This document shows, piece after piece, positions 19,491 to 57,765 of a DNA stretch of 64,000 nucleotides. A program made the position numbers and the translations under genes. Numbering within the stretch: the stretch's first letter is position 1; every line of letters starts with the position of its first letter. Under the pieces are notes generated by a model, which saw nothing but the letters and a program-made list of their open reading frames with translations, did not search any database and was not told the origin of the DNA. The stretch is from Carcharhinus amblyrhynchos (Eukaryota). Location: positions 72,974,001 through 73,038,000 of the forward strand of contig OZ336882.1 of the NCBI GenBank assembly GCA_965287045.1, given 5' to 3'.

Positions 19491-19640
19491 ATAAGAGAGG
19501 GGATTAAGGGTTATGGGGAGAGGGCGGGAAAGTGGAACTGAGCCACGACAGATCAGCCATGATCTTATTGAATGGCGGGGCAGGCTCGAAGGGCCAGATG
19601 GCCTACTCCTGCTCCTATTTCTTATGTTCTTATGTTCTTA
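19491..19640 (+). mobile_element. 150 bp 3' end of the same young CR1 LINE in the intron of gene B
   Basis: Reads identical to ~27022-27169; absent from the introns of A (~3765) and C (~53670). Confidence 0.92.
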
Positions 19641-26030: not shown

Positions 26031-26177
26031 TTGAGAAATGGTCGTGACCTCACAGTAGTTTCGTGACATTGTGAGGAGTGGAAATTTAAACTCAGCAAGA
26101 TAGTCATAAGAATGAGAATAGTGGTCCAAAAAACAGTGCGGATTTAAACATGAATAGCCGTCTTGTTTCGGACAACT

Positions 26178-27169
26178 ATTTACCATTTATATAGATGATC
26201 TGGAGGAGGGAACCGAGTGTAGGGTGTCGAAATTTGCTGATGACACCAAGATTGGGGGAAAGGCAAATTGTGCGGAGGGTGTGGAGAGTCTGCAGAAGGA
26301 TCTAGATAGGCTGGGCGAATGGGCCAGGAAATGGCAAATGGAATTTAATGTTGGCAAGTGTGAGGTGGTCCACTTTGGTAGGAAGAATGGTAGGAAGGAC
26401 TATTACTTACGTGGCGAAAAACTGCAGCAGGCGACGGTGCAGAGGGACCTCGGGGTCCTTGTGCATGAGTCGCAAAAACCCAGCCTGCAGGTGCAGCAGG
26501 TGGTCAGGAAGGCGAATGGGATGCTGGCCTTCATAGCGAGGGGGATTGAATATAAAAGTAGGGAGGTCTTGCTGCAGCTGTATAGGGCACTGGTGAGGCC
26601 GCAGCTGGAGTACTGTGTGCAGTTTTGGGCGCCGCACCTGCGCAAGGATATTTTGGCCTTGGAGGGAGTGCAGAGGAGGTTTACTAGGCTGATACCGGAG
26701 TTGAGGGGGTTGAGCTATGAGGAGAGGCTGAATAAACTAGGCTTGTACTCGTTAGAGTTTAGAAGAATGAGGGGAGATCTCATTGAGACGTATAAGATGA
26801 TGAATGGGATGGATAGGATAGAGGTGGAAAGACTCTTCCCGCTCAAAAAAGACAGTAGGACTAGGGGGCACAGCCTCAAGATAAAGGGGGGGCGGTTCAG
26901 AACGGAGTTGAGGAGGAACTTCTTCACTCAAAGGGTGGTGAATCTCTGGAATTCTCTGCCCGTTGAAGTGGTGGAGGCTGCCTCGCTAAATATTTTTAAG
27001 AAGCGGGTTGATGGGTTTTTGATAAGAGAGGGGATTAAGGGTTATGGGGAGAGGGCGGGAAAGTGGAACTGAGCCACGACAGATCAGCCATGATCTTATT
27101 GAATGGCGGGGCAGGCTCGAAGGGCCAGATGGCCTACTCCTGCTCCTATTTCTTATGTTCTTATGTTCT
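26178..27169 (+). mobile_element. Young 5'-truncated CR1-clade LINE (HER1-like) with intact RT C-terminal frame
   Basis: 282 aa open frame with SKFADDTK, WQMEFNVGKC, YCVQFW and FFTQRVVNLWNSLP; 3' tail (CTTATGTT)n; AACT duplicated at 26174-26177 and 27170-27173; absent at the homologous sites in A (~9300) and C (~60243). Confidence 0.95.
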
Positions 27170-29270: not shown

Positions 29271-30999
29271 ATGGAAACTCCCCTGATCTGCCTCCAATGC
29301 CAGTATGGTTTCCCCTCAATAAAACAAATCAATGACATTCATAATATTCAAGGGGTGGTGAAAATTATCTTTTGCACCGTTTTATTATACCTTCCCTCTT
29401 TTTTTCTTCATTCTGTTGGAAATAAAGGCAGACATTCCATTTATCTTCCCATTTATCGGCTGAATCAGAATGCTTGTATTTGTGATGTATACACAAGGAC
29501 GCCTAAATCCTTCTGTGTTGTTATTTTCCGCAGAATGTCTTCAATTAAATAATAATCAGCTTATTTATTGTTTCAGACTGAAACACAAAAGCTCACAACT
29601 TTTTTGCATTATATTCCAGCTGCCAAGTTTATCCCACCTGATGTAACGAGTCCATATCTCTCCGTTGACTCCTTGTGCCATCACAATAACTTGCTTTCGC
29701 ATTTTTTGTGTCATCTGCAAACTTGTCAAAAAAATCCATTCACTTCCATCTTCCATTTTAGTTTGTCACTTCATTGAGTTGCATGAAAAATAGACTCGTT
29801 GAAAGTAACATATCTGATTCTCTATCATTCGTCCACCACATATTATCATTACACACAACACTAAATGCTGCGATGCTTGGCATGGATCACACTGCTATTC
29901 ACCAAACACAACGTGTTCGTTTCCCAATGGATCACAGAACTTGTCTTCTCATTTTTTTCTGCTTAATGAATAAGGTTTTACATTTGGATTGCCACTCAAT
30001 GAGGTTCTGAATTTCTGTTATGGAGCTTAACCAGTTATTCTATAAAATTAATATTATGCTTATATTGGTGTATTGACAGTTTACATTATGCCCCAGTTTA
30101 AGGATGGTGGAGTTAAAACTCATGACTTCCTTACCTCTCCCCCAACCTAACACGCCTGGGCTTCAGCTCTCATTCTCGCTGTCTTCATCGATCTCTTTCT
30201 AACTCGGTTTCTTTTTCTCCCTCGCTTTTACTGCATCTGTTTATGCATACAATGCCAGAAGATAAGATATTCTCCCTCATTTCACTGAATTTCCCACTGA
30301 CACATTTTCAATTCTTTTTGTACTTGTTCTCCCTTCATGCAGTCCTCAGCTTAACCGATGTGAAAAAATCTATATGTTGTCTCACTTACTTCACTCATAA
30401 CTTCCTGTTTCCACTATGCAAATGCATATTGTCAGTTGTCAGCACAAGCTCTGTACTTGCACTGTTTCATTATGCGAGGAGTTGGGAGAGGAGCTGGGAA
30501 TTGTGCAATCATTTGCAAACAACTTCTGATGACACTTATGGACAGAAGTCACTGATGAAGCAATTGAAGATAGTTGGCCCGTGAACACTACCTTGAAGAA
30601 CTTCCACAGTGAGGTCCTGGAAATGTAACCACCTAAACCACTTTCATTTGTGTCAGGTATGATTCCTACTAGCAGAAAACATGACCTTGATTCCCATTGA
30701 CACCAGTTTTGTTTGTGTTTCTTCAGCTGATACATGGTCAAGCACCCCTTTTCTGACAAGAGAAGTCGCCCTCAACTGGCTTCTTTGTAACGTCACGTTA
30801 TTGTCTCTCATACAGGGTGTATCAGACACTATCAGAAATTCATGGCGTCTGATTGACAGCCCTGGTCAAGAAAGAAGAGATGAAGAAAGAGACCGGGAAA
30901 TATAAAAATAAAATATGAATATAAAATAGAATATATTGCCTGAATCGTTGCATATGTAATGAGGAACAAGAAAAGTTTTGTACAACATTGCCTTTCAAT

Positions 31000-33600
31000 G
31001 AACCCAGGAAGACAGAAACAAGAAGATGTTGAAATTGCTGCTCTTAGGGAAACAGGAAATCTATGATGTGGTTATGGAGGATGGGCCCCAGTATGTTGAA
31101 GGAGTAAGATATTGCTTCTGAGCAAACGGGATAGAATAGGATAACTGGCTAAATGCCATCTTCCTAACCACTGTTGAGGCCCCGACTTACGACATCATAA
31201 GAAGTTTAGCCTAGCCCTGGATTCAAAAGCTTTCATTGAATTGATTGATATGGTATCAGACCACAATGTTCCTAAGCTGTCTGTTATGTTACAATACTAC
31301 AGGTTTATCATGGCAAATTGACTCCTTGGGGAAACAGTCACTATATTATTGATGAGACTGCAAAAAATTGGCAGTATTTTCCTATCCTGCCCACCACGGG
31401 AATCATTGCGGGGCTGGTGCAGATCCTGCCCAGATCTATTAACCTCAGACGGGGTTTTCCAGATTTGGAGCAGAAAACCCCACACTTTGAGTCCCTGTCA
31501 ACACGTCCAGAAATGCTAAGGGATCAATTAGTATCAGGAATTAATAATATTGCAATCCAAAGAAAGCTACTGACTGAACAAATTCTGGACATCAAGAAAG
31601 CCATATAATTGGCCCTTTTGCATGAGAGAAATGTGGAGAAAAGGGCCCAGGAGAGTCTGGGGTTCATGGATGGGTGACCACTATACCACAAAAACAATTG
31701 CCCAGTGGATAATACTTGCATTGTCCATTTGCTGCCAAGAAAGGGTGATTTGGAGTTGAAGGGTGCAGAAGTGGATGGGAAGCCTCTCATCAATACAGTG
31801 AGGAGCTGCACTTGTAGTCATAGGGTCCACCTCAGAGAAGGCTACTGATAAAGGCCAGACTAAAGGGTGAAGCCACCTCATGACAAGGCTTTGCAAACAA
31901 ACCAGCCCAAGAATGAGGAATTGATTATTAAAATTGCTTCACCACCGCGAAAGTGGCTCTTATCAAAATTAAACTCCAGGCAAATGGCCATGCCGGAAAT
32001 ATGGTCATGAACATGAAACATTGTCATGAACATGGGAGCTGCTGTATGTATTATTAAGGAGCAATCCTTGAAACAGCTCTGATTGGACATCTTGCCTTTA
32101 AGCCTTTGGGACACAGTGGTTGGATTTGCTATGTACACTGGGAAACCCTTATGTATTGTGACTACTGCAACCACAGTAATGCCTGAGCAACAGACAGTCC
32201 ATCTCCCCCTTATAGTGGTGCAAGGACCAGGACCCAGCATTTTGGGAAGGAACTGGCTACAGAAAATGTGCCTAGATGGGCAACAGATCTTTAAAATTTA
32301 TGCAAACTAATTGGGAAGTATCCTGAAGTTTTTCAGCATTGTCTCAGAAAGAATAAAGGCACTAAGGCTAAGATATACGTGGACTCAGAGTCCTGACCCA
32401 AATCTTCAAGGCACTACCTGTCTTCTATGCCTCACTTGCAAAAATAGAGGCCAAATTAGAATGTTTAGAGGAACTTTGCATATACACCCAGTTCAATTTA
32501 CTGAATGTGCTTGCCAGCATTCCCAGTTTAAAACTTAAAAATTCTGCCCATCTGTGGGGATTATAAATTGAGGGTCAATAAAGCCTCCTGCTTAGACAGA
32601 GACCCTATGCCACACATAGAATACTTCTATGTGAATCTGGCTGGGTGTCACATATTTTCCAGATTGAACATGAGCCATACCTACCTCAGTTGAAGCTAAA
32701 AGTACCATCCAGGAAGTATCATCCAGAAAATACCATCCATAAATATTCGCAAAGGACCGTATGAATGCCCTCTAAATGTCTTCAGCTTGCACCAGTTTTC
32801 AAAGGATGATGGAGGACATCCTTCAAGGGGTGTCCAGAGTGACAGTTTATCTGAATGATGTTTTAATCTGTGGAACTATTGCAAAGGAACATTTGGAAAG
32901 TTTGGAGGAAGTCTTATGACTTTCTTCTGATACTGGCATTTGATTAAAAAGGGGAAGAAATGTGTCCCAGGTCAACAAGATAATGTTCCTCAGGTACAGA
33001 GATGACAAATGTGGATTGCAACCTGTTGAAGAGAAGTTGCAGGCCATAAATGGGGCATAAACTCCGTGGAACACAATAGAGTTGCAGTCTTTCCTAAGTC
33101 TCATAAATTGGTATGGAAGATTCATACCGAATTTGACGACCCTGCTGGCATCCCTCCACAAATTGTTAAGAAAAACAGAAATGGTCAGGAGGGAAAACCT
33201 TTGCAAACATCAACCCACAATTGTTGTCAACAAATATCCTAGCCCATTATGACCAAGGAGACCACTCATTGTAACTTGCAATGCCTCCCACTATGGGATA
33301 GGAACTGTATTATGGGATGTGTTGGGATGATTGGACAGTGCTTCTAATCATGTGCACATCATGAACCCTGATGGATGTCGAGAGGAATTATGCCCACATC
33401 GAAAAACAAAGTTTGACCAAGATGTTCATAAGAAAAATTTGTCCACCAGTATGTCTACGGTTGACGTTTTGCCATAATAATGAGTCACAAACCTCTGTTG
33501 GGCCTCTTGAAGGGAGAAAAGGCAATTCCTCCCATCACATCAGCCCAGATTCAATGCTGGGCTCTTTTATTAGGTGCCTATGCTTATACCTTTGACAGGA
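31000..33600 (+). mobile_element. Decayed Ty3/Gypsy LTR-retrotransposon internal region (gag-protease-RT-RNase H)
   Basis: gag EMLRDQLVSGINNIAIQRKLL; protease LPLIVVQGPGPSILGRNWL; RT YLNDVLI; RNase H CNASHYGIG and ERNYAHIEK; many stops and frameshifts; no clear LTRs. Confidence 0.85.
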
Positions 33601-34487
33601 GAAATCATTGCATGCCCGTGATGAAAGTTTTTTAGTTTTTAAAAATAAAACATTCATTGCTCACATCTTATTTGGTTAAACAGTAAATACCAGTTAACTG
33701 GGCTGCAGCATTTCAAGAAGGCACTACTTTCTCAAGGGCAACAAGGAATGATGAGTTCTCAGGGTGAAAGTGATCAATGCCCCATGATCGTATTTTATTT
33801 TAAATTCATTGTGATCCCATACCAAGTGCAGCCTGCAGGTGATTTCAAACTCAGCCTTTCAGTATTTATCTGCCAACAAGGCACTTCCTGAACTTTTCAG
33901 ATCAGTTACACAACCAAAAGTGATAATATTTTATGAGTAAGTCTGATATATTACCAGAGTACACTGAAGCCACAAGTAGTCACTTGTTTATTCAGTCTGC
34001 ACTGAAAGTAACGACATCAACACAAAGCTCCCTGTGGATTATATATAATTAGCTGGTTCTTTCCTCTGTGACACAAAAACTGATCTTGAAACATACAATA
34101 TAAAGCGCTGAGGAAAATCAAAATGCTGCTGAGTTTCTATTCTCCCTTACACTGAGATGCACTTTAGCATCACAAGTCAAAGTAAACTTAGCATAATCTT
34201 TAATCACTTTACAATGAATTGAAAACGAGGATGACCGCATGGAAGATTTCAAATTAGACCACTGTCCACTTTTGCTGACAAACCATAGATCTTGCTCACC
34301 CATCATATTGTTTTACAGCAACATTGCTGTTGACTCAGAGTTTGGCTGTGCATTTTTTAAAAAAAATCAGTGCAGAACTTGGTAGTGTTTGCACACATTT
34401 TAGACCACAGTCAAATGTGAGTTTTTATGTATTCTCAGTCACGCATAAACTCTAATATCTCCCATACACAAAAGTTCAAACTCTCCA

Positions 34488-34510
34488 TCACACACACACA
34501 CATACACACA
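34488..34510 (+). repeat. (CA)n microsatellite
   Basis: cacacacacacacatacacaca. Confidence 0.7.
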
Positions 34511-35649
34511 AAATCCTCTCAAACTCTCTCCCTTACACACGTACATACTCTTTACATTTGTATTGTCAGAGAACTTTAGGTACACTTAGTCAACTCTTAA
34601 TACAAACAACACTGGACATCATGCATCCAATGCAAGGTCTTTAATTACTTGTGCTCAAGGAGAATGGCCATCCCTCCATCAAAATGGCTGGAATGGTTCT
34701 GATGTTACAGAGAAACAACTCAGCATTTATAGTCAATTACAACAAATCAGGAACAAGAGATTTTTCACATCTTTCAGTGACATACATATTTGGCAATTAA
34801 ATCCTGGCCCTTTCTCATTCGATGAAAAATTGACTGCTGCTAATCCTTCATTTTTCATAGCATAACCCAATATCTTGCCTTTGCTATTTGTTATGGAAAA
34901 ATCTGGTCTTGTTCGCCCTCCAGTGAAGATCAAAAAGCAGAATGTTTTGAGTGCTAGGCAACAGAAAATTAGCCTAAAGCAGACAGGCTCCCTTGAAGGT
35001 CTGCAACTAATAACATTCTCCCAGCTGTTATGGAGAAGGCATGTTTTTTTTTAAATCTGAGCATTATAACTTCTACAGTATCAGTATCAGTATCACCCAG
35101 TGGTCTGTAAAAATATCTGATCACTTCTCATTAAAATCACTTAAGCAATATCTGTGAAGCCTGGTCTAACTGAGCTTCTCTCTGTGCAGGAACATTTACA
35201 GTGACCAAATTCATCAATGCTGCATCTCTCGACATGGGAGTGCAAAATTTGACTGAAAACAGAGCACCTTTCAGCAGTTCCCAAACTGGATGTTACATCA
35301 GTAACTAAAGGTGAAATGTCATTTCCAATCAAAAGATTTACTATTTGGTCTGTTTTTACCCCTCTCAAATTTAATTTAGAGTGAGGAGGCATTGACTCCG
35401 ACCGTATATTTATAATTACCAACTTCAAAGCATTCATGGGACAGTGTATCTTAGTGGCTGCTCACATTCTCCTGATGGTGGGTGGTGCGCTATTTTCTCA
35501 ACGTGGCCTTGAATGGTGTTTCTCTTTTTAACCTGGAAATAATGAGCACAGATTTCAAAGGCAAGAAATAAAAACAATGGGTCTTGTTATTTGGCAGTGC
35601 CCTCCATTCAGTTTGAAGTTTCCTTCCTTAGAAACAAAGTTTTGAAAAA

Positions 35650-35935
35650 GTGTCACAAGTAAGCTTACATTAACAGTGCAATGAAGTTCCAGTGAAATTC
35701 CCCGAGTCACCACACTCCAGCAGCTGTTCGGGTACACTGAGGGAGAATTTAGCACGGCCAATGCATCTAACCAGCACGCCTTTTGGACTGTGGGAGGAAA
35801 CTGGAGATCTCAGAGGAAACCCACGCAGATAAGGGAAGAACATGTAGAGTCTACAAAGACACTAACCGAAGCCTGGAATTGATCGCAGGTCCCTGGTGAG
35901 GTAGCAACACTAACCACTGAGCCAACCATGCCGTG
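35650..35935 (-). mobile_element. HE1/V-SINE-type tRNA-derived SINE
   Basis: Minus-strand head ggcatggttggctcagtggttagtgttgct, core ctgcgtgggtttcctc, tail ttcattgcactgttaatgtaagc. Confidence 0.85.
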
Positions 35936-36434
35936 GGGAGATCAGGCACATTCTGAATTTAAATTTAAAAAAGACATTTTATTCTTAAGTTATCGAAGAG
36001 TCAATAGTAGTGATGCAAGAGAGCAAGTTGTAATTTTGAGTGGGTGTTATCAATATCTCGGTACACAATATTCATTACTGCTGACAATTTGTCAAATATT
36101 GGGGCAAATCGAAGGGATTCCTTAACTTGAGCATACATTTTCTTTGTCAGCCTTAATTAAGGAGACAATAGGAGCTGAAATTCAACAATATTAATGTTAA
36201 ATGGGGCAGCTCTGATTGTCAATCATTCTAAATGGGGAATACAACAGTAGCCAAAACGCCTTTGGTTGTAATAATCTCAATGTTGGTGCACCTGTACAGT
36301 GGTGCACTTTCCTTTTCTGGTGAGTGCCTTGATTCAATCAATCTGATTTGGATTTAGTTCGGTGTCCAGTTGCCGCTGTATTGACTACCAGAGTGCAAGG
36401 GCCTTGCTGGAGACTGAAGAACACCTGATTATTA

Positions 36435-36690
36435 GGACGGCACAGTGACACAGTGGTTAGCACAGCTGCCTCACAGCATCCTGGTCCCGGGTTCAATTCC
36501 GGCCTTGGTTGACATTCTGTGAGGAGTTTGAACATTCTTCCATACCTCTGTGCTAAATTGTCCCTTTGTGTCAGGAGGATTTTCAGGGTAAATGCATGGG
36601 ATTACTGAGATGAGTCCTAGGTGGAATTGTTGTCAGTGCAGGCTCGATGGGCTGAATAGCCTCCTTCTGCACTGTATGGATTCTATGATA
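36435..36690 (+). mobile_element. HE1/V-SINE-type SINE with an internal deletion
   Basis: GGCACAGTGACACAGTGGTTAGCAC (A box), GGTTCAATTCC (B box), CR1-derived tail gcctccttctgcactgtatggattctatg. Confidence 0.85.
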
Positions 36691-37409
36691 TTCGTACTTG
36701 ATCTGGATTGGCCACGCAAGTTAATTGCTTAAATGAATACTAATGTTGCCCAGTGTGATAGTGTATGATTATTCCAAAGTATACAACACCCAGGGGTTGC
36801 TCATATTCAGAACTAGGTTAAATAACCTTCTTGATTTTTAAAGAGGCAGTGTACCTTTGGGATAGCACAGAACAATTGATTTTATTTCTGGATGATCACT
36901 GCACAAAATACTGCAAGTTAAGGGAATGTCTGTTCCTGACAATGGACATATTTATTTATGTGATTTGTCACACTGACAGAATTACAACCAATATGTAATT
37001 TCAGTTATAAAAAAATACAGCAAAGACCAGACCTGAGGAATGGCGCCTGAATTGTGTTGGGAAACATGTAACACATCACAGGCATGGGCAAACTTATCGC
37101 CAACAGCAACACAACCTGAAATAAGACAACTCTTTCTCTGCAAAAGTGTAATTTAGATGATAAGTACTCAGCTTGAAAGAACCATCCACAGCCTTCAAAA
37201 TAACTTTGTGAATAAACACATACACCAACGTGATGAGTTGACACGAAACCATTTCTTGTGGGGTTTTTAACTATTTTCCCAACAAGGTAAGCCGAATGAC
37301 ATTTAGCCTCATACAAGTAAGAGATACAAAATGGGTTCAATATCTTTATCACTATTCCGTGCTTTTCAAATAAATCCCTGCAGTCTTCTACCTATACTTT
37401 TCTGTGAAT

Positions 37410-38440
37410 GACAGGAACAAACAGTGCAGAAGATACCCTTCGGCCCATCTAATCTGCACTGTACATGAGAAACAGCCGACCTCCCACCTAATCCCATGTA
37501 TCAGCACTTGGCCCATTGTCTGGAACGTTATGATGTTTCAAGCACTCATCCAGGTATTTTTTAAAGGGTGTGAGGCAACTTGCCTCTGCCATCCACCCAG
37601 GCAATGCAATCCAGATTGTCACCACTCTGGCAAAAATGTTTGGCCTCACAATCTCCTAAACTTCATGTCTTTCGCCTTGAACTTGTGTCCCCTCGTGACT
37701 GACCCTTCAATTAAAGAGGAGGACTGTTCCTTTCCACACTGTTCATTCGGCTCATAATCGTATAAACCTCCACCAGGTCGCCCCTCAGTCTTCTCCGATG
37801 CGAAGAAAACAACCCAAGCGTATTCAGCCCTTCTTTCTTAGCTTAAATGTTATCTCTGAGGCAGCATCCTAGTAAATTGCCTCTGCATCGCTCTCGTACA
37901 ATCACATCCTTCCCATAATGTGGTAACCAGAACTGCACACATTACTCAAGCTATGGCCTCCCCAAAGCTCTATGCAAAGGCAATATGACGTACCTGCTTT
38001 CTGTGCCTCATTTGATTAAGATAGTTGTCCCATTTCCCTTGATCGCTCCCCCACTAATAGGCCCTTCTGCCTTCAGAGATCTATAGACAAATACTTCAAG
38101 GTCCCTTTGTACTTCAGGATTTCCCAGTATGCCGCTGTCGTTTGAATATTTCCTTGTCAAATAAGTTCCTTCTGAAGTGCATCACCTCACGCTTTTCAGG
38201 AATAAATTTCACATGTCACTTATCTGCCCATTTGACCATCCTACTTATATCTTCCTGCCACCCAGTACACCCAGCCTCCCTGTTAACCACCCAGCCAATC
38301 TTTGTGTCATCTACAAACCTACACCACACGTAGTCATCTGTGTTGTTTATATTGTTTGAATGACGAATTAAAAGGGACCCAGCGCAGGCCCGTTCGGTAC
38401 GTCACTGGACACTGGTTTAACTAATAAATCAGACCTCTGT
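37410..38440 (-). mobile_element. Decayed CR1-group LINE fragment
   Basis: accagaactgcacacattactc (EYCVQFW on the minus strand), tttgtgtcatctacaaac (FVDDT), 3' UTR-like start at 37410. Confidence 0.7.
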
Positions 38441-38444
38441 CATT

Positions 38445-38880
38445 GAAACATAGAAACTGGACGCAAGAGCATACCATTTGGCCCTTCGAGCCTGCTCTGC
38501 CATTCATCTTGATCATGGCTATCATCAAATTCAATATCCTGATCCCCTTTTCCTCCCATATCCCTTGATCCCTTTAGAACAGTTAAGCTCAATCAAACAT
38601 TCGTTTTCCTCTGGCTCAGAATCTAGGACGAAGGGCCACAGTGAAAAAAAACACTGAATCCGGAGATTTCAGCATTGAAGTTAGGAAACTATTCAGCACA
38701 CCGTTTTAGAACTTTGGGTCACCCTTCTGATTAAAGTAATTAATGCTTGGCCCATCAATCTCAGATCGATTGGGGTTTGCTAAGATAAGGTATCAATTTA
38801 TATCCAGGAAACGCGATTATATGGAGATAGTTGCCAGTTAACCAAATGTTCTTTGAATTACTGAGCAGGCTGAATATTCT
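38445..38880. mobile_element. Short CR1 3'-end remnants (38445-38580 minus; 38600-38880 plus)
   Basis: gaaacatagaaac...ggcccttcgagcctgctctgccattca...gatcatggct, followed by tctaggacgaagggccacag... Confidence 0.55.
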
Positions 38881-40831
38881 AATTGTTTCAAAAACAGCAA
38901 AGTTCGAGGACGAGCCCCTCAGCTTCCGACTCTATCACTCTCTAAACTCAACATTAAGTTGAAAAATCTATAACATAATGGCCGTCTCTGTGTTGTTTCA
39001 TGCTCGTTTTTGCTGGTTTTTTAAAATTTTCTTACATCTTTAATTATTCCTTTACTTTGCATTACAGGAGCTGTTATTCAGCCATCCGCGCCAATACCTA
39101 AATGGACAGATCTTTCTATCTTTACGATATCCATTGTCAGCTGCTTTGCATTCTGAAACATGGAGCCATTTGACATTTAATCCTCCTCCCATCTCCCCTC
39201 TCCCCTCTACTAATGACCTTATCTGAGGCTCATCACCCCACGCTCGCCGCTTCAGCTCCACATACAGCTGCTCAAAATTTCTTACATTTTTACCGATATT
39301 ATGTCTTTAAGAAATGCAGTTTAATCACGTTTCTCTGCAGGTTTTTCAAGCAGGTCCCAGCATTTAATTGGTACCCTGATGTCTAACTGGGTCGTCTAAT
39401 TGTTACTGAAGTAATATAATGGACATTATAGTTTTTAAAATCTGGTCAGATGCAGTGTTCTGGGTTTTAATGTTTCTTGGGATTGCTGAGTGGAGTTTTA
39501 TTTGGGGATGATTGACAAATGAGGTGATACGCATGGAGGCAGTTTTTTTTATCCACAGAAAAGTCTAAATTTAGTTTCATGTCTCAGTTGCTGATAGAAG
39601 CTGGTGGAAGAAGGTACTGCGTCTCTCTCCCCAGATGCTTGAAACATTTTTATTAGATTTGATTTGACTTTAGAATACTATTATAGTATAGTATTAGTAT
39701 AGTATAGTGTTCGTGAAAAGTAGCTTCTGTTGCATTTACAGACAAAGCATACTGTTCAAACAGAAGGAAAGGAAAGAGTGCACTGGATTACCCATGCTGG
39801 AGAAGCAAATGAAAGTGGATCCAAGATTGTACGATTAGAGAGATCACAGCAATAGTTGATAATAAACATGGTACAGAAAACTCAGAAACCACCTTTAACT
39901 ACAATTGTTGTGACAGAGACACGGTTATATCAAGTTACGCGTAAAAAAAATGCTAATGCGGCAAATAACTGAAAAAAAAGTTTCCATGCAAGACAATGGT
40001 CATCCAACACAGACTTTCAATGCAGAGCTGATTGCAATGCAACAAGATGACTGAGGACATGTGATCTGGTTCTCAGAGCATCGGAATGCTCTGTGAAAGG
40101 AGGAATTCAGGGAACAAATGCTGAGGCAGCTAAGAGAAGTACAATAAGATACAACAAACACCGTGGAAGACTGGTGGAACTGCATGGCCGACATGATTGG
40201 AAAACACTAGTGAAGAAACGTTGTGAACGATGTTCAGGGTGGCTCAGGCTGGGAAAATGGAAAATAAAAATAAAGTAAGTACAGTCAATGAAAAAACTGT
40301 CCCGTTTAAGAAATAGAAACAGTCACTTTCACGGAAGATTACGAAAATTACGAAAAAATAACGAAAAAGTAGTTTGGAGAGAAAGGCTTTGGATGAAACA
40401 TATAAAAGTCTCAAAACCAAAGAGCGACAGAACGTTAGATTGAGAATCGCAATTGTTGGAGATAGATGTGGAAAAATTTGGAAACTGATCCAGCTAAAAA
40501 AAGGTGCAGCTCCGTGATCCTTAGACATGTAGTCCTAACTATGAAATCGTTACCCGCATTTTTCAAGGAAATAAATTCAATTCACATCAAATAATTTTGC
40601 AACATCAAAAATGGTGACATTGAAAACCACAACGAAAACGATGAATGAAACTCCCACCACATAAGGAAACATCTACAAGACATCTATGAGTGAATGTCGT
40701 CATATACTCCAGAAAGTTAAGCAATGGCAAGAAGAAACGACAAGGACGGGATATTAATGAGTTTTGGATGCTGATATGAATGTATGAAAATGAAGAAGAC
40801 TAGGAACCAATATGCAATCGATTAGTTAGGA

Positions 40832-41150
40832 GGAGCGGCATGGTAGCACAGTGGTTAGCACTGCTGCTTCACAGTTCCAGCGTACTGGGTTCGATTCCCG
40901 GCTCGCGTTACTATATGTGTGGAGTTTGCACATTCTCCTCGTGTCTGCGTGGGTTTACTCCGGTTTCCTCCCATAGTCCAAAGTTGTGCGGGTTAGGTTG
41001 ATTGGTCATGGTAAGAAATTGCCCCTTAGTGTGTCCAGGGATGTGTTGATTAGTGGGTGTGATATGGGGATAGGGCCTGGGTGGGATTGTGTTTGATGCA
41101 GACTCGATGGGCCCAAGGGTCTCTTTCTGCGCTGGAGTTTTTTTAAGATT
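40832..41150 (+). mobile_element. HE1/V-SINE-type SINE
   Basis: GGCATGGTAGCACAGTGGTTAGCACTGCTG...GGTTCGATTCCC...GTGTCTGCGTGGGTTT core and LINE-like tail. Confidence 0.9.
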
Positions 41151-41319
41151 ATAGACACTTGAAAGAATTTAGCTGAGACAAAATTGAAATGGTTTGGTGA
41201 TGTGTTTTGGAGAAATAAAGGGACTGTTGTGATGTATCAGAAACGAATATTTGTTAAATGATTGTAAATAATGTCACTGAGGATTACACCTGTTGGGCTC
41301 CCTGGAGCTTTGGTACGAG

Positions 41320-41327
41320 TATAAATA
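41320..41327 (+). promoter_or_regulatory. TATA box upstream of the orphan exon 1
   Basis: TATAAATA about 80 nt upstream of ATG 41401. The paralogs carry TACATAAAT at a similar distance (~2205, ~17815, ~52118). Confidence 0.5.
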
Positions 41328-41400
41328 TAGATTCCCTTCCAGTGCTTCATCATGCGTCAGTGCTTTCAGCTGCTCCAGAAGTCATCCCTTCTCACAGAAT

Positions 41401-41470
41401 ATGAGGAACCCCGTTATTCTGTTGGTGAAAGAGATTTACTACCCGGTTCTCACAGCTGTTGGGCTTCCCG
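41401..41470 (+). CDS. GPR139-like: Divergent GPR139-like exon 1 with no adjacent exon 2 (MRNPVILLVKEIYYPVLTAVGLP); orphan or alternative first exon
   Basis: Exactly 70 nt from ATG to CCCG|GTGAG, the same length and phase as the three paralogous exons; same IL..K(D/E)IYYP.L...G.P motif. No 7TM ORF lies between 41470 and 52204. Confidence 0.8.
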
Positions 41471-41959
41471 GTGAGCCATTGAAACCATTTGTTGTTAATT
41501 GATGTAAACTGTGTATTTTTTATTGCAATTTATTGCATAAGGGAACGTGTTTCCAGCATTTTGTAATGGATAGTTGCCGGGGCGAACTCATAAGCAGTTT
41601 GATCGCACCATCTGTGTTTCTCTTCATCTGGAAACCTTACTAATGTGATCATACTATTCACTGAATGTTCCTTAAATGTGACCGAAATTCTGACTGTCGT
41701 GTCGTCCAGCGCAGAATGAGATCCGCAGTCGCTTATTAAATGTTTGTTTGGGATTCAATTTTTAACACCGTTTTTATTGAGAATATTCAACTTTATATTC
41801 TGCGCGATATGCAGACAAATCCCCAACACAGTGCAGAATGATCATCATTTCACATATATAGATAGAGAAGACAAGCATAGATTAATACAAATAATTCAAG
41901 GAGACAGCAATCATGGTCACTGTCGTTGTTGCCGCGCTTTCTTTTGCATGAATATTGAG

Positions 41960-42500
41960 AGGATAACAAAGAAACATTGCGTGAGAAATCAGGGCAACAT
42001 AGTAAGGCCATAAAAACATTTCACGATGGTGCACACTTTTTCACGGGATAATACAATAAAAGAAAGTCTTTGGGACAAGGCGCGTTGGAAGGCAGCATCG
42101 AAATAGGGGATAACCCTGTATGCTGATTTCCCTCGGCTCAAAGGGGATCCCAGTGCCAAGAAGATACCCCTCCTCCCCCACCCCCCCAGAAAACCAGCAC
42201 AAATATACTCGAAGCTCAAAGACCTATCAACCATGAACGGGCGAGCACCACTACATATCTTCCCCACCCTCTCACTCATCACAAGCGACAAAGGCAAGAA
42301 AAATCCAGACCACCCCTGGTTACCTACATACGCAAACATTGGATAAGCACAGGATTTCTTAGAGGCCGAATTTTTGACAAAGACAACAAAGAAAAAACAA
42401 ATCAATATTCCTAATGGGCTGTCCTCACCAAAAAATATGATTTGAAGCAATTTCAATAATTACTACATCTATCCATTCGACTTCCACCATGCTGTGACGC
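41960..42500 (-). mobile_element. L1/Tx1-like LINE 3' fragment
   Basis: gaaggcagcatcgaaatagggga and aaagaaagtctttgggacaaggcgcgttgg resemble the 3' part of fish L1/Tx1 ORF2 on the minus strand; A-rich flank. Confidence 0.4.
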
Positions 42501-42549
42501 TATTCTTTCTCATTGGTAAAGCAAAGGTCCTGCAAAATAATTAACTCAT

Positions 42550-43585
42550 TCTATGCAATTGGATAGGATATGTAAAATTATACATATGTATCGCATGAGC
42601 TTTAAGACATACAAACTACTCAGAGTGCTGGCCGAGAAGAAAAAAGTAAGAGGGCACACGACCCGCAACGCAGGTCCCCCTCCCCTTCCACTGGCGGATC
42701 ACCCAGAGGAACACCCATCAGTAAGGAAAAAAATGATAGCAATCCAGAATTTACAGGATAACAATGTGTCAGCCAAGGGGAAAAGAGGAAAATGCCAAGC
42801 ATTTATGCTGTGATGATATTTATAATGCCTACAGGAATGCATATTCTTCAAGTAGTCGGTGTGTCTGGGAAGAATGCAGCTCAGGTGCTGTAGATGCAGA
42901 ATAAAAAACATACAGTGTTTGCTTAGGAAGAAGGTAATGGGATTCTGTTTATAAATGGAAATCTCGCATGGCTTCGGTTGAAGAAATGAATTGTATGCTT
43001 AGGTTGGTTGAGAGGGTTATATGATAATATGGTGAGAGGATCTATGTCTGTAGCAAGGATTTTGTGCTGGTTTAGTTTCAGTTTCGAGGTTTTTTCAGTT
43101 GTAGCTAGGGCTTGTTGGAGCTAGCGGTCGGCAAGTTGCCCTGATACTCAATTTCTCTCTGGCACTTCAAGTCAATCTGCATGCCTTTTAGTGAGTATGT
43201 TTATGGTTGCTAATTGTACTTAATGTCTAATTGTTCATCTGTAAGACAATTTTGATGATTTAGAATAGAACAGTAACAAGTGAGAAATTAAAGTTGTTTC
43301 CTTTCATTTTTCAATATTGCTGATTTTTAATGGCAAAACTGTGTCACTTTGTTAGGACTAAATTTAAACTATGTTATGAATAAAAATTATCTTGATATAA
43401 AGATGCCTAATTTATCAGTGAAATTCCTCCTGGAGTGAAGCATCCTGCCCTCATACTTATGCCAAAATAGAAAAAATGCTGTGTTCTGGTCTGGCCTTGG
43501 TGTTCTGATCTATGACAATATCAGCGTGCAATGCATCAACATATCAGGGTAAAATACAACATCACATAATCCGGAGTGTCACAAG
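42550..43585 (+). mobile_element. Probable Gypsy gag remnant followed by LTR-like sequence
   Basis: 42550-42950 resembles Gypsy gag; 43000-43585 has a TG-rich U3-like block and AATAAA (43379) and ends GTGTCACA. Confidence 0.35.
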
Positions 43586-43668
43586 GAAAACATGTTTAAT
43601 ATTACAGATGAACTGTAGGATATAATCCACTCATCGAGCTGGAAAAGGCTGCAACCATGACCATACTG

Positions 43669-43988
43669 AGAGGCACGGTGGCACAGTTGTTTGCACTGCT
43701 CTGCCAGGGCGCCAGGGATCTGGGTTCAATTCCGGCCTCGGGTCACTGTCTGTGTGGAGTTTACACATTTTCCCTGTGTCTGCATGGGTTTCCTCCAGGT
43801 GCTCCAGTTTATCTGCAGAGTCCAAAAAAGTGTGGGTTACGTTGTTTGGCGATGCTAAATTGACCTTAGTGTCAGGGGGATTAGCAGGGTAAATATATGG
43901 GGTAATGGGGAGAGGAATTGGATGGGACTGTAGTCGGTGCAGACTCAATGGGCTAAATATACTCCTTCTACACTGCAGGAATTCTATT
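43669..43988 (+). mobile_element. HE1/V-SINE-type SINE
   Basis: GGCACGGTGGCACAGT...GGTTCAATTCCGGCCTCGGGTCACTGTCTGTGTGGAGTTT...tail ccttctacactgcaggaattctat. Confidence 0.9.
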
Positions 43989-44429
43989 AAAAAAAGGATA
44001 TTATTGAGAAACATCCAGAATCGTGCAGAACTTCACCAAATTCTCCATTCCTCTATGATGCCATAATCCCAGAGCCCAGATTAGGCATAAACCGGGCCCC
44101 TAATGGGCGAGGAACATTGAACACAATCCTGCCTCCCACACTTCTCAACAAGCATTGAGGTTAAGACAAAGCAAAGCCGCTGGCCGAGGTCTCCAGCCGA
44201 ACACAGATATCAAAACTGGATGAAATGGCCTTCATGGAACTCAAGACACCCAGTGCTGAAATCGAGATTATGCAGGCATAGTACGCAGTTCTCAAACTCA
44301 GCTAAGAATCCCACAGCAGCTCTTCCTCCAACTGCGGGCATCAGTTCATGCATCATCTTCATCTGGCGAAGTTCCCTTCATTAAATAGGATGCTCAACAC
44401 ACCATGCAGCAGGATTTCCAAGGTCAAAG

Positions 44430-44860
44430 GTTAGCTTCCACCAAAGAAACAGACTTCGCTGGAGGCCATGCTCCTGTCTACATAAATGGGGATAAAATGG
44501 AAATGGATAGAGGCTTCAATTTCTTGGTGTCCAGATCACTAACTTGTTCAGGTTCCTCCACACTAATGTTTTCTCAGGAAGCTAAGGAAATTTGGCTTGT
44601 CCAGTAAAGCTCTCACTATTTTTTACAGATGCACCATAGAAAGTATCCTTTGCAGCAGTATCACAGCTTGTTATGGCTCCTGTTCTGTCCAAAACGCAAC
44701 AAACTGCAAGGTGTTGTGGACGTTGCCGAGTCCACATAAACCACCCTCCCTTCAATTGACACTGTGTGCACTTCGCGCTGTCTTGATAAAGCACACAGCA
44801 TAATCAAGGACCCTGTGCACCCGAGCCGTACTCTCCTTCACCTTCTTCACTGGAAAAATA
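44430..44860 (+). mobile_element. Rex1/Babar-like LINE fragment
   Basis: ORF 44597 ALTIFYRCTIESILCSSITACYGS and AHSIIKDPVHPS..L.HLL are characteristic of the Rex1 C-terminus. Confidence 0.75.
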
Positions 44861-44899
44861 AACAACAAGTGATAGACAGAGCTAAGCGATCCCGCAACC

Positions 44900-46640
44900 A
44901 ATGTATCAGAGCAAGCTCTGCAGTCCTGCAACATTCTGTCGCACATGGTGGTGGACAATCAAATAATTACTGTTGAAGGAGGCCCCGCAAGCATCTTCAT
45001 CCTCAGTAATGGAGGAGCCCAGCACTCAGTGCAAAATATAAGGTTGACAAATTTGCAGGAATCTTCAGCCATAAGTTCCAAGTGGATGATTCATCCCGGC
45101 CTCGTCCAGTGGCCCCCAACTTCAAATATGCCAGTCTACAGCCAATTCGATTCACTTGACCTGATACCAAGAGCTGGAAGCACAGAATACCTCAAAAGCA
45201 ATGGACCCTGATAACATTCCGGCAATTGTACTGAAAACTCGTGCTGCCAAAATTGCTGTTTCCCAGCCAACTCCTTCTAATGCAATTCAATCATTGGCAT
45301 TTACCTAACAGCTTGGAGAATGTCCTGTGCCCAAATCAGGACAATTTCAATCCCAGCATTTACCACTGCATCGGACAACTCTTGATCATCAGAAAAGCGA
45401 TGGAAGGCGCCATCAACAGAGCTGTCAGGCAGCACTTGCTCGGCAATGACCTGCTCAGTAGAGCCCAGTTTGGCATCAACAGAGTCACTCAGCTCTTGAC
45501 TTCTTTGTTTAAAACATCGAAAAATGGGCTGAATGCCAAAGGTGAGATGAGAGTGGCATTCAATCGAGCGTGTAATCAAACAGCCCTAGCAAAATAGGAA
45601 TCAACGGGCTTTGGTGGTAAAGTCCCAGATGGTTGGAGTCATCCCTGGTGCAGAGGATGATTGTTGTGTTGAGGGGGTCAGTGATCTCAACTCCAGTATT
45701 TCTATGCAGCCATCCATCGGTACAGTGTTCTAGAGCCAAACATCTTCAGCTGTTTCATCAATGACCTTCCCTCTATCATAAGGTCAGAAATGGGGTTGTT
45801 TACGGATGATTCAGCGCTATTCACAACTCATCAAAAACTGGAGTAATCAATGATTAAATGTAACAAAATCTGGCCAATATCCAGACCTGGGCTGACAAGT
45901 GGCAAGTAATAATCTGGCCATACAAATACAGGGCAAAGACCATCACCATTAAGGGGCAATCTAACTACTACCCCTTGGCATAAAATAGTGCCACCATGAT
46001 TAAATCGCCCCGTGAACATCTTTGGGGTTACCATTGACCAGCAAGTCAACTGGATTAGCCACATAAACACAATGGCTACAAGAGAGGGCGTGATGGTGGG
46101 AATAATGCAGCGTATAACTCACCTCCTAACTCCAAAAAAACTATCCACCATCTAAAGGCAAGTCAGGAATGTGATAGAATACTCACCACTTGCCTGGATG
46201 GCTGCAGCTCCAACAACACTCAAGAAACTTGACACCATCCAGGACAAAGCAGTTCGCTTGATTGGCACAAAAATCCACTCCCTCCATCACCGACGCTCAG
46301 TTGCGGTAGCATGTACCATCTACAAGATGCTTTGCAGAAATTTACCAAAGATCCTCTGACAGCACCTTTCAAACCCACGAACGCTTCCATCTAGAATGAC
46401 AAGGGCAGCAGTTATATGGAAATACCACCACCTGAAACTTCCCCACAAGCCTCTCATCACCCTGACCTGGAAATATATTGCCGTTCCTTTACATTGCGGG
46501 GTCAATATCCCTCTGTAACGGTATTGTGAGTCAACCGACAGCACGTGGACTGCAGCGTTTGAAGAAGGCAGCTCACCCACCCCCTGCTCAAAGGCAAAAA
46601 AGGATGGGCAATAAATGTTGGCCCATGTGCCACGAATTAA
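44900..46640 (+). mobile_element. Decayed CR1/L2-group LINE (RT plus 3' UTR)
   Basis: RT pieces AQFG, FINDLP..IRSE.GLFTDD and EYSPLAWMAAAPTTLKKLDTIQDKAVRLIG; 3' end gggcaataaatg...aattaaaaa. Confidence 0.8.
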
Positions 46641-46759
46641 TTAAAAATATTGAGACTGCTCTGAGGAAAATCAAATCCTTGCAGCTCGCTTGTACCCTGA
46701 AAATCTGAATTTGCAAATGCAAAAGTTCTAACATTCCATTTTGTGCGTGATCAGTGAGC

Positions 46760-46945
46760 GAAGAAAAAATGCTGAATTCTCCAGTCAGTGCAAATACGTG
46801 CTTAAAAGGTCCGGGGGCATCTGTGGAGAGAGAAACATAGTTCCTGTTTCAAATCCTTACGAATTTTCTTCAGAACTGCGGGGTATTTTCTTTTTTTATC
46901 TAATTTCAGATTTCCAGCATCCACGGCATTCTGCATTTCCATTAG
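46760..46945. mobile_element. Shark-type Penelope-associated palindromic repeat fragment
   Basis: aaaatgctg...gcatctgtggagagagaaacatagtt...atttcagatttccagcatcc. Confidence 0.55.
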
Positions 46946-49900
46946 CAAATCTACATAACTGTGCGCAGGACTGTGAATGATATAGTAATTTAAATCACAC
47001 ACCGCGGCAGGATTTGGATTAAATCTGTATCCGTCGACCTCTTGCTCTGAATTAATATTGTGAGATTCACACAGTCCCGATCAATTTTATCGCAGATGTG
47101 ATTTGGGCGCTGGGATTCCTGCATAAATCTGTCAATCACACTGATTTGGAGTGAAGTAGAAAAGACGTGTTTCTCTCTTACCCTGTTTGAATGTTAGATT
47201 AAAATATATCCCTGGAATTTGGGAATATCGTGGAATTGACTACTTCTGATGTCAGTGCCTGTGGAACTGATGAGCTGTCTGTGTCGCTGGGTCTCTGTGT
47301 TATGTTGTAGCTAACACGTGTGAGAATAAACTGCTTTCGTTTCCTATTCTTATACCTCAGGTGGAATGTTCAAAAAGAATCAAAGGGAAGGTATGTGATA
47401 TGATGGAGAGTTGGAGAGAGTCAATTAAAAATGCGACAACATGGCTAAAAAAAACCCCTGCATGGTCGAGGGAGGTAATGGGATCAGTAAAGAAACAAAC
47501 AGTAGCCGGATGAATGGCATGTCCCTGAATGGACGAAAGGAAAGAAAATAAGAGATGAAGCATCTTAAAACGGAACAAAATGGTGGTAGATATTACCATG
47601 AATGTTACGGTGTCCCATTAATGTCCCACATCATAAACGATCCATCAGGAACCAAAAGTAATGTTAAGGTCCACCGTTTCCAATTCCTTTGGCTTCCAGT
47701 GAACCAGTAAATTGTTTGGAATAATAACTGTGATCCTTTTGGAACACTCTGTGCCCTGATTTGCCTTCCGGTCATCCCAAAACATCCAACTTTGTATGTT
47801 CTGTGTTTTTTTTTTGTAGCAAAGTTGTTAACACTGAAATCTCACAGCACCAGAGACCCTGGTTTTATTCCTCACTTGCGTCAGGTTCTCTCCACGCCTG
47901 TGTGGCTTTTCTCCAGGTGCACTGGTTCCCTCCTAATAGGGAATGACATGCTGGTTAGGTGCATTGGCGATGTTAAGTTCAGCCTCCCTGTCCCTGAGAA
48001 CGCGCCAGCATGTAGCTTCCAGGTGATTTCCACAGCAACACCATTGCAATGTTAATGTTAGCCTACTCGTGACACTAATAAATGACCTTAAAACTTTCAG
48101 GCCTTTGTTGTAACAGAGATTTTCAAATTATTCACAGCATTGCACAGTGGCAGACATCTTTCAATCAATGTACTCCGGCATCAGGGATTCAAAGTAACAC
48201 AGGTTTAGACGAATCAATGGAATTTGTTCTACCATTCAAAGATCTCATAATTAATTTGTGCCCACCTCTATAGACATACGTGTTACAATTCCCCATTCTC
48301 GACCTTAAAAATATATACAGATAAAGCCATCCTTCTGGCTACCTGATGAAACCTCTAACGCTCTTAACCATCTCTCTATCGTTCTTTACATCTGACGTTT
48401 CCAAGGAGCTGCATTGCAAAATGTACCGGCAAATTATAATCAGAACACTGTCTCTGGAATGCAAGAGGAGTATTCTTAAAAATCTGCTTTTGTCCATTCC
48501 TCGATATCAATAATTTAAACGCCAGAATTCAAAATTATTTCAGTAACTCGGCTCGAATTGTTGTGAAGTTCAGTTTGTAAAGATATAATGGCAGGAGACA
48601 AAATGCATTAACAATTGTGTGTTCCCTATAAAAACTGATATTTTGTTGAAATACCCGGAGGTTTAAAATGCAAAGTACATCCAGTGGTCAAGATGAAACA
48701 TTTGTATCTCAATGTCAGACAATAATCTTGAATAGTAACCTGTTTGTGTTTGAATGTTGTCTAATTGATTTGAAGCAGGCACTCAGAAACCAAAAACCTA
48801 TAAGATTTGAAATTGATGGTACTGATAATGGTGGACGAATCCTATTGTAGGAAAGTTGATCGGTCACGGGAGGTGCAAAAGAGATTGCAAGGGGGGAGAA
48901 GAAAAAACATTTGGCTGACAATGCCATCTCTCAAGCCTTAAGGGAGATAGAGCACACAAATGCCACTTGCCAAGAACAAAGGGTTCTAAGCTTGACACAC
49001 CATGCCAGATTCAGATATCTCTCAAGTGAACAGATAATCTAACCAGTGAAAGGTGCAGAATCATAAATAACTCACAGACAGAAAATTCAACCGAAAAGCT
49101 TCAGAAGACTCCAAAGGATACCAAACCTGGTTGCATACTTACTGGGAGTGAGAAAACTATTGTTTCGTTGTTAATGAATGGACATTGGTTCTGTCAAATG
49201 AATGGACAACTGGCCTTAATGTGGAGTAACACTAATCAGTGTGGGTTCAATTCCAATATCGGCAAGGTTATTCAAAACTGATGGCCTTCTCAATCTTGAC
49301 ATTTTCTGGTTGAGCCACTACCACACAGTTGGGAAATATTTTTTAAACATGTTTTGTGGGGGGAAGGGTGGAGGGAGAGGGGGAGGGAGTGAGTGGAGGG
49401 AAGTGGTGTGGAAGGAGGAGGAGCGAAGGGAGGGTCAGGGAAGAGGGATGGAAAGGCGTGGAGGGAGGGGCGGGGGAGGGGGGGGCGGGAGTGGCGGGGT
49501 GAGGGAGGGGGAAGGAAGTGTTGAGGGTATGAGGAAGTGAGGGGGAAGTGACGGGGAGAGTAGGGGGATGGAGGGGGTGAGCGAGGGGGGAGAAGATGGT
49601 CGGGGGAGGAAGGAGATAATGTGTGGGTGAGTGGCTGGTGGTTGGGTTTAAATCGGGGAAGAGGAAAGTGGATATGAGTCCACAATCCGATCATTCTCGC
49701 TTCTGTATGTCACAATGTAAATTCCCCATAATGTTGCAGTAACGTTCCACTGTGTGAGAATTCTTAGATGGTACTGGACTGAAATATTGCAATGCCAGTC
49801 TTGCAAAACAGAAAATTGTTGATAATGTATTGGTGAATGTCGCAGTGAACTGTGTTCATACATTTTGAAAGAGAATAAGGAAGGCGATGCATCCGTAAAC

Positions 49901-52203: not shown

Positions 52204-52273
52204 ATGGCGCGCGCCGCGATCCTGCAAATAAAGGACATTTACTATCCTCTGCTAGCGACCTTTGGTGTTCCAG
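52204..52273 (+). CDS. GPR139-like: GPR139-like gene C, coding exon 1 (MARAAILQIKDIYYPLLATFGVP)
   Basis: 70 nt exon ending CCAG|GTAAGT, seen inside ORF 52093-52296; phase 1. Confidence 0.9.
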
Positions 52274-53884: not shown

Positions 53885-54813
53885 CGAACGTTATGACCAT
53901 CGTGATCCTCTCCAGAGGAAATTGTGGTCTCTCCAAATGTATTTCTGCCTACATGATGGCTATGGCTGTAGCGGATCTGCTGGTCATGGTGATTAGTGTG
54001 CTCCTGTGTCAGATCTTCGGTTATCAGTTTCCGAACTCCTTTTTGTCCTACACTTCGGTTTGTAAGTTCATTCTGTACAGTGGTTATGTTAATTTGGATA
54101 TGTCAGCGTGGTTCACAGTTTCATTTACATTTGACCGCTTTGTTTCCATCTGTTGTCCGAAATTTAAAGAGAAATATTGCACAAAGAGAACTGCAACTTG
54201 GATTATAGTAACGGTCTTCGCCTTGACCTATTTAAAAGGTGTCCCTATGTTTTTTTCGTACGAAGCTGAACGAATCATTGACAATGTGCACTGGGGCTGT
54301 CGGACAACGCAGGCCGTTTATACATTACCCGCATGGTCTGTGTACAGCTGGATGCAGTCTGGCTCAGTTGTGCTGTTGCCTTTTGCTCTCATGATGCTGT
54401 TTAATTGTTTAACCGTCAGACGTATTTTGTTGGCAAATCGTGTACGCAGAGGCCTCCGGAGCAGTGGAAATGAGAGTCAGAGTGACCCAGAAGTGAAGAA
54501 CCGAAGACAATCCATCCTTCTACTCTTCACGATATCGGGCAGCTACATAATTCTGTGGTTAACAGCTGTTGGGAGTTTTGCAGCCACCAGAATGTCGAGC
54601 AGCGTTTTCAATCAAGGAGATTACTCCAATCCGGGGTATATCGCCACTGAGACTGGATGCCTGCTCATGTACCTGAGTTCCTGTTCCAACACATGCATTT
54701 ATGCAGCGACCCAAAGGAAATTCAGAGGAGAACTAAAGAATGTGCTGAAATTGCCTTGGACATATTTTTCCAAATTGGTGAAAGATGAGGAAGAACTTAA
54801 GACAAACCAATGA
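53885..54813 (+). CDS. GPR139-like: GPR139-like gene C, coding exon 2 (spliced protein 332 aa)
   Basis: ttcctcttcttgcag| acceptor at 53884; intact 306 aa ORF 53893-54813 with the same 7TM motifs and an 8 aa longer C-terminus. Confidence 0.92.
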
Positions 54814-56775: not shown

Positions 56776-56840
56776 CAATATAGGAATAATCTGGTTCCGC
56801 TGCCAAGGCAGTAAGCTGGCCGTTTGGGAGAGAAACAGAG

Positions 56841-57269
56841 AACATAAGAACATAAGAAATAGGAGCAGGAGTAGGCCATCTAGCCCTTTGAGCCTGCCCC
56901 GCCATTCAATAAGATCATGGCTGATCTGTCGTGGCTCAGTTCCACTTTCCCGCCCTCTCCCCATAACCCTTAATCCCCTCTCTTATCAAAAACCCATCAG
57001 CCCGCGTCTTAAAAATATTTAGCGAGGCAGCCTCCACCACTTCAACGGACAGAGAATTCCAGAGATTCACCACCCTTTGAGTGAAGAAGTTCCTCCTCAA
57101 CTCCGTTCTAAACCGCCCCCCCTTTATCTTGAGGCTGTGCCCCCTAGTCCTACTGTCTTTTTTGAGCGGGAAGAGTCTCTTCACCTCTATCCTATCCATC
57201 CCATTCATCATCTTATACGTCTCAATGAGATCTCCCCTCATTCTTCTAAACTCTAACGAGTACAAGCCT
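56841..57269 (-). mobile_element. Young 5'-truncated CR1 LINE, same subfamily
   Basis: ORF 56936-57265 is near-identical to the end of ORF 26224-27072; (AGAACATA)n tail; ACAGAG target-site duplication at 56835-56840 and 57270-57275; absent from A (~6336) and B (~23203). Confidence 0.95.
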
Positions 57270-57765
57270 ACAGAGGCGTTACTGTTGCTGAAGTTTTTAA
57301 GAAAGGCCGTGGGAAGGAAAGTTAAATTAGCGGGGAATGGTTACACCTTCGACAGGAGTCATTGGTTTAATTTAGTATTCTCAGAAAACATAAAAAAAAG
57401 TTGGGGGATTCAGGATATAGAGGGAAAATAACCACTTAATTCACTTACAGAACTCAGGAAATTATTAAAAAAAACTCATATTTTATAGACATGAACAAAG
57501 TGTTTAACTTTAAAAAACACTCAGAAATCAAGTTATGTTTTCTGTCTTAAAAAAAGGGGCACATTGTCAAAAAAAAAGAGGTAAACAAGCTAAGTTTGAA
57601 ACAACCAGAACGTTAAGCCATTCAGTTCTATTCAGGACGAATCTTCGTGTTTTAAAAATTTGCAGCAAATGATAGGAAGTGTTCATTCAAATCTCAATAC
57701 AATCGGAAAGGGGAAAATGTTGATTCGAAGTTACACACAAAAAAAGTGGATGCCGAAATTTAAAC

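Follow-up and report, generated by a model that had tools for sequence, protein, structure and literature searches.

A stranded promoter and first exon in a shark receptor cluster, probably left by a 3'-truncated segmental duplicate

What is the status of a receptor first exon that has no second exon behind it? The question is raised by a 64,000-nucleotide stretch of the Carcharhinus amblyrhynchos genome (contig OZ336882.1, positions 72,974,001 to 73,038,000 of the forward strand; this whole stretch is called the window), in which three class A GPCR genes of two exons each, A, B and C, lie in tandem units that are ~90% identical. Between genes B and C lies one further first exon with a promoter of its own, called the orphan exon here (Table 1). 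An earlier note on this DNA had proposed a variable first exon, spliced onto a downstream exon 2 and allowing combinatorial use of promoters and N-termini, and had named as the alternative a relic that had lost its exon 2 by deletion. The evidence set out below makes it probable that the orphan exon and its promoter derive from the 5' end of a gene of another receptor subfamily, were carried in by a 3'-truncated segmental duplicate and are an unselected relic.

Table 1. Positions of the receptor genes, the inserted copy and the elements of the orphan exon (window coordinates; C13 marks coordinates of the source locus)
Feature	Position	Strand	Remarks
Gene A	exon 1 at 2291, exon 2 near 3980
Gene B	exon 1 at 17900, exon 2 near 19844
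Insert dividing the tandem unit between genes B and C	30919-47611		16.7 kb, one entry point
5' block of the segmental copy	31343-44861	+	source C13:73593851-73608320; blastn 96.2-96.4%
TCCCTGGAG promoter motif	41299-41307	+	source-subfamily type; not in A/B/C-type promoters
TATAAATA box	41320-41327	+	same letters in the source gene
Orphan coding exon 1	41401-41470	+	ATG 41401; 70 nt = 23 codons + 1 nt
GTGAG phase-1 donor of the orphan exon	41471-41475	+	usual donor in the source subfamily
Deletion junction	44858-44861	+	4-nt microhomology ATAA common to both ends
3' block of the segmental copy	44862-47625	+	source C13:73611390-73614170; 93.2% identity
Gene C exon 1	52204-52273	+	GTAAG donor, CATAAATG box; between the orphan exon and gene C exon 2
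Gene C exon 2	53885-54813	+	class A GPCR, 7tm_1

The coding exon is real, and its peptide is as the earlier note gave it; the GTGAG donor and the TATAAATA box are likewise both present. However, neither element was kept from genes A, B and C, as had been supposed, because the donors of these genes are GTAAG and their TATA-like box is CATAAATG. Over its last 64 nt, the orphan exon matches the exons of genes A, B and C at 38-40/64 nt and A/B/C-type exons in general at 37-40, but the first exon of a gene at C13:73604845 at 61/64, and the two neighbors of that gene reach 59 and 57. This closer nucleotide match argues that the orphan exon is not derived from an A/B/C exon, although it had been described as a diverged one. 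A tree of 27 first-exon regions places it as the sister of the C13:73604845 exon, with a support of 98/89, inside the subfamily of that gene, referred to here as the source subfamily. Judged by these comparisons, K-E, V-G-L-P, GTGAG and TATAAATA are source-subfamily characters that were inherited and had been shaped by selection on intact genes. Selection on the orphan exon is therefore not supported by the conservative changes, because all the features listed were inherited from a source gene that is 96% identical. The case carries a warning that the conservative divergence of a stray exon can simply mean an origin from another subfamily.

The surroundings of the exon explain how it came to lie between genes B and C. 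In a self-alignment, unit A aligns to unit B until A:13072/B:30918 and resumes at A:13074/47612, and units A and C are unbroken across this site. Because the B unit stops at 30918 and resumes at 47612 while unit A is continuous there, a 16.7-kb piece entered at a single point; no target-site duplication at the insert is evident by eye. A search of the same genome with positions 41270-41800 returns 15 matches, of which the best besides the window itself is at C13:73604714, 96% identical over the full length. This source locus is located ~590 kb downstream of the window and holds an intact gene, whose first exon is C13:73604845-73604911 and whose second exon, at 73609393, is open for 309 codons and lies 4.48 kb past the first. 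Homology to it spans window 31343-47625 (C13:73593851-73614170; 16,204 aligned columns, 3.3% substitution), so that the insert is mostly a 93-96% copy of the source locus. The 5' block, which comprises exon 1 with its promoter and the DNA upstream of it as well as ~3.4 kb of the source intron, shows 380 substitutions in 13,448 columns (2.8%), and the 3' block, which corresponds to a part of the source downstream of the stop codon of the gene, shows 162 in 2,756 (5.9%). The first 424 nt of the insert (30919-31342) are a dispersed repeat at 69-74% identity, for which no close source appears among 40 scored of 192 candidates, and the reading frame overlapping them has no Pfam match. Because the divergence of 2.8-5.9% from the source is smaller than the ~10% between the A, B and C units, the segmental copy is inferred from the sequences to be younger than the duplications of these units.

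Exon 2 was lost inside the copied block. The copy in the window skips from source position 73608320 to 73611390, and the absent 3.07 kb (about 73608321-73611389) holds the entire source exon 2 plus ~1.07 kb on each side. Whether the window lost this piece or the source gained it is decided by an outgroup paralog at 73.64 Mb. Its exon 2 lies at 73645565, in the interval that matches the deletion: window 44587-44858 corresponds to 73644203-460, and window 44867 onward to 73647554 onward. The dedicated exon 2 foreseen in the relic alternative thus did exist and was deleted here, as the source paralog in the same genome reveals, and only the proposed site was wrong: the break lies at the deletion junction listed in Table 1 and not at 47.6 kb, which is the right edge of the insert. 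The absence of an exon 2 after the orphan exon also holds. No remnant in any frame is found by tblastn between the orphan exon and gene C, on either strand of the interval 41.5-53.8 kb, and the only matches obtained are exons 2 of genes A, B and C. There is no repeat longer than ATAA common to the two ends of the absent piece. A shared sequence of only 4 nt points to microhomology-mediated repair or a template switch, which would have acted during or after copying. The copy, its source, the single insertion point, the deletion and the 4-nt microhomology are direct observations. Long non-coding homology of more than 90% to the source locus, together with a complete source gene of which the window copy keeps the promoter and the 5' exon and lacks the 3' exon, identifies the insert as a 3'-truncated segmental duplicate. 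The junction also makes an AATAAA (window 44857-44862) that is absent from both parent ends and is a candidate poly(A) signal for the stranded promoter.

Precisely at the deletion junction, the divergence from the source jumps from 2.8% to 5.9% (P ~8e-16), evenly between the two lineages, and a search for the 3' block in which 40 of 12,773 candidates were scored finds no source closer than the 73.61-Mb locus. Two templates may have contributed to the insert, or gene conversion may later have homogenized its 5' block. This step, and junctions that are known from the assembly alone, speak for a misjoin of the 73.6-Mb locus in the insert or at the deletion junction. However, the 542 substitutions and 39 indels are distributed along 16.2 kb and are about even between the lineages, unlike a duplicated read set, and the host unit, broken at one point only, retains both of its halves. 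An assembly artefact is therefore a very improbable reading of the locus. This verdict makes no use of sequencing runs, among which no RNA run is listed for the stretch; the DNA runs with the largest shares of its words (0.84, 0.82, 0.56 and 0.54) belong to a single study and may include the sample behind the assembly, and two other organisms reach 0.32 and 0.29.

The intact state of the exon can be compared with neutral expectation. When changes are polarized with four outgroups, the orphan lineage has acquired two replacements, K3N and I16V, as well as one silent change at codon 4 and an A-to-T change at -1, and the orphan-specific bases are 41400, 41409, 41412 and 41446; the source lineage has no substitution in the same exon and one 3-nt deletion, by which one codon was lost. 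The coding substitutions of the orphan exon comprise 2 replacements and 1 silent change, in 70 nt that give little power to detect selection, and their number is slightly above expectation (P 0.08), not below it. When neutral evolution is simulated at the rates measured for each lineage (substitutions 1.4%, indels 0.11%), TATAAATA, the ATG, the frame and GTGAG all survive together in ~71% of 100,000 runs. The promoter core and 5' UTR (41291-41399) have no difference from the source in 109 nt, and the stretch 41447-41562 has none in 116 nt. A difference-free promoter was considered as a sign of selection and rejected: the 13.4-kb block contains 14 identical runs of at least 109 nt, which makes such a run unremarkable. 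Promoter, exon and 5' intron together carry 17 changes on the orphan side and 10 on the source side, whereas the flanking stretches are split 18/18, 48/49 and 15/15. The 17 to 10 split, a matter of small counts, fits relaxed constraint on the orphan copy.

These observations can be drawn together. A 16.7-kb copy of a locus ~590 kb away entered the B-to-C unit at one point, and the 3.07-kb deletion cut the copied promoter and exon 1 off from their own exon 2. A transcript from the intact promoter would in most cases stop at a cryptic poly(A) signal or be spliced to a cryptic acceptor, and would encode a short peptide only. As a relic of this kind, the orphan exon is an ordinary, cleanly resolved piece of birth-and-death debris.

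The main alternative to a relic is that the stranded promoter is active and that its donor is spliced over 12.4 kb to the acceptor of gene C, giving a full-length receptor with the expression pattern of the source subfamily. Promoter, ATG and donor are intact, and joining the orphan exon to gene C exon 2 (acceptor 53884|53885) produces an open frame of 332 aa, in which 12 of the first 23 residues are not those of native C; no other acceptor tested yields a full receptor frame when joined to the orphan exon. The first exon of gene C itself has no acceptor that could intercept the orphan donor, and introns of up to 6.1 kb occur in the family. The promoters also differ, with TCCCTGGAG and TATAAATA at the orphan exon and TAATCACGTG and CATAAATG at gene C. 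Because the frame is kept and the promoter type differs from that of gene C, the predicted fusion amounts to a promoter swap plus a 12-residue change at the N-terminus. On the other hand, 22 A[AT]TAAA hexamers, one of which overlaps gene C exon 1, stand between the orphan donor and the C acceptor; 41735, 42055 and 44857 are candidate transcript ends. The earlier note had called 53885 the next compatible acceptor. It is indeed the next receptor acceptor and is in frame, but 7 acceptor-like sites come first by a crude AG/pyrimidine rule, opening frames of 26-101 aa only. The intron would be twice as long as the longest of the 25 measured in the family, and the orphan exon shows no sign of constraint, although 70 nt offer low power. 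Splicing to gene C is thus an unlikely reading, but one that retains some weight. If it were correct, receptor C would be made in cells that normally choose another subfamily, and the locus would illustrate how expression can be rewired while most of the receptor stays as it is, possibly a first step to a variable-first-exon layout. A real fusion splice would also turn the locus into a natural experiment on promoter swapping within a large receptor family, one in which four bases are diagnostic.

Human 3'-truncated duplicates are among the closest known parallels. SRGAP2B/C, ARHGAP11B and NOTCH2NL are likewise incomplete copies with a promoter and 5' exon and no downstream coding exon, and their possible fates are likewise truncation or fusion with neighboring exons (PMC6169893). 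According to the same work, human duplicates of this type that keep their promoter are all transcribed and fusion transcripts are common, accounting for 5-49% of transcripts in the named cases, with the reading frame rarely altered (PMC6169893). Silence of the stranded promoter in the window can therefore not be assumed. Unlike the human duplicates as they are portrayed there, the copy in the window keeps only 23 codons, owes its truncation to a deletion inside the copied block, and is known from sequence alone. Its downstream neighbor, again unlike theirs, is a paralog of the same intron phase, which is the reason why a fusion would keep the frame.

The proposal of a selected variable-first-exon system requires a different architecture. 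In the PCDH, UGT1 and GCNT2 clusters, tandem variable exons are combined with one set of constant exons, an arrangement conserved across vertebrates (PMC1885805, PMC3325998). The window resembles these clusters in that the orphan first exon, with its own promoter, lies upstream of a frame-compatible acceptor: it has a TATA-like box and a phase-1 donor, and the predicted join is open. The 27 catalogued first exons are all phase 1, as the earlier note had stated of first exons in general, and all of them end at one and the same codon, so that cross-splicing across the cluster would be frame-compatible. However, the common phase is the ancestral intron of the two-exon family and not a variable-exon design. 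The census covers 424 kb of fetched DNA, from which 29 exon-1-like tblastn rows were obtained and two without an ATG were dropped, and its stretches were picked around exon-1 or exon-2 matches, so that it is a sample and not genome-wide. In this sample, 26 of the 27 ATG-bearing first exons have an exon 2 of their own, full length and 122-6,095 nt downstream in 25 cases and cut at residue 149 in one; the orphan exon alone has none. In a less biased subset, the exon-1 matches in the same genome besides the window, all 12 have an exon 2 within 4.7 kb (two 40-nt intron matches were left out of this count). Because nearly every first exon has its own exon 2, there is no variable-exon array, and combinatorial promoter and N-terminus use is not supported. 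Two defining features of such clusters are lacking: a tandem array of first exons devoid of their own downstream exons, of which the 424-kb sample holds a single one, and shared constant exons, since every gene has an exon 2 to itself and gene C, in addition, an exon 1 of its own at 52204. The same subfamilies emerge from the exon-1 and exon-2 trees, exon 1 encodes 23 residues only, with the rest of the receptor in exon 2, and the single orphan exon has a dated, accidental origin. It is hardly credible, on this evidence, that protocadherin- or UGT1-like combinatorial splicing to downstream second exons has been selected cluster-wide.

Two promoter types are found among the 27 members of the cluster. 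The A/B/C subfamily has TAATCACGTG and CATAAATG, and most others have a TCCCTGGAG-like motif and TATAAAT. With an ad hoc search pattern, the TCCCTGGAG motif is present in 12 of the 26 promoters with a located TATA-like box and in 0 of 9 of the A/B/C type. The motif presumably resembles O/E (EBF) sites. The two types suggest different regulation within one cluster.

The receptors encoded by the cluster belong to a very large family. Gene C exon 2 and source exon 2 match Pfam 7tm_1 with 77.0 and 74.9 bits, respectively (cut-off 30.5). A 12-sequence exon-2 profile has GPR139 as its best PDB match (E 1.1e-11; 7vug and 9m42 are the entries for GPR139/GPR142-related receptors), in an alignment that begins with residue 1 of exon 2; the protein alignment omits one paralog that carries an internal stop. 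With a single exon-2 sequence, GPR139 ranks tenth in the PDB and other peptide receptors rank higher, and 'probable G-protein coupled receptor 139' is the name given automatically to the nearest Atlas clusters. By this distant, best-hit match, the receptors appear to be related to GPR139/GPR142. They share the 7tm_1 domain and the PDB profile match with these orphan class A GPCRs but differ in the size of the family: at least 128 exon-2 matches were scored among 3,383 candidates in the genome, a number that argues against single-copy orthologs of GPR139/GPR142. GPR210A/B and further orphan clades stand beside GPR139/142, and sharks are not mentioned in the available text of that work (PMC6504862). 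No account of the locus or of the receptor family was found in the literature on cartilaginous fish, as covered mostly outside subscription journals.

Other broken receptor units occur nearby. Just upstream of the window, L031 (C13:72969024-72971208) has an intact exon 1, frame-compatible with the gene A acceptor, and an exon 2 cut at residue 149. L036 (C13:72886634-72887316) is an exon-1-like piece without an ATG beside an inverted exon-2 fragment, and L041 (73251434) is an exon 2 with stop codons, with no exon 1 found in 7.4 kb upstream. Within the A/B/C subfamily at C13:72.93-73.29 Mb (L031-L034, L038-L043), exon-1 type and exon-2 clade are mismatched: at 73061091 and 73265400, the first exons are B-like and the introns longer, but exon 2 of these two genes falls in the clade of gene C and 72952583. 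This mismatch suggests mosaic genes formed at the DNA level by unequal crossover. Finally, young reverse-transcriptase fragments that are 98-100% alike and presumably LINE-like lie in different tandem units of the window, at 26158-27169 (+), 56839-57270 (-) and 19489-19638 (-). In the source, a 91% copy of their tail begins within the deleted piece, ~45 nt from its left end.
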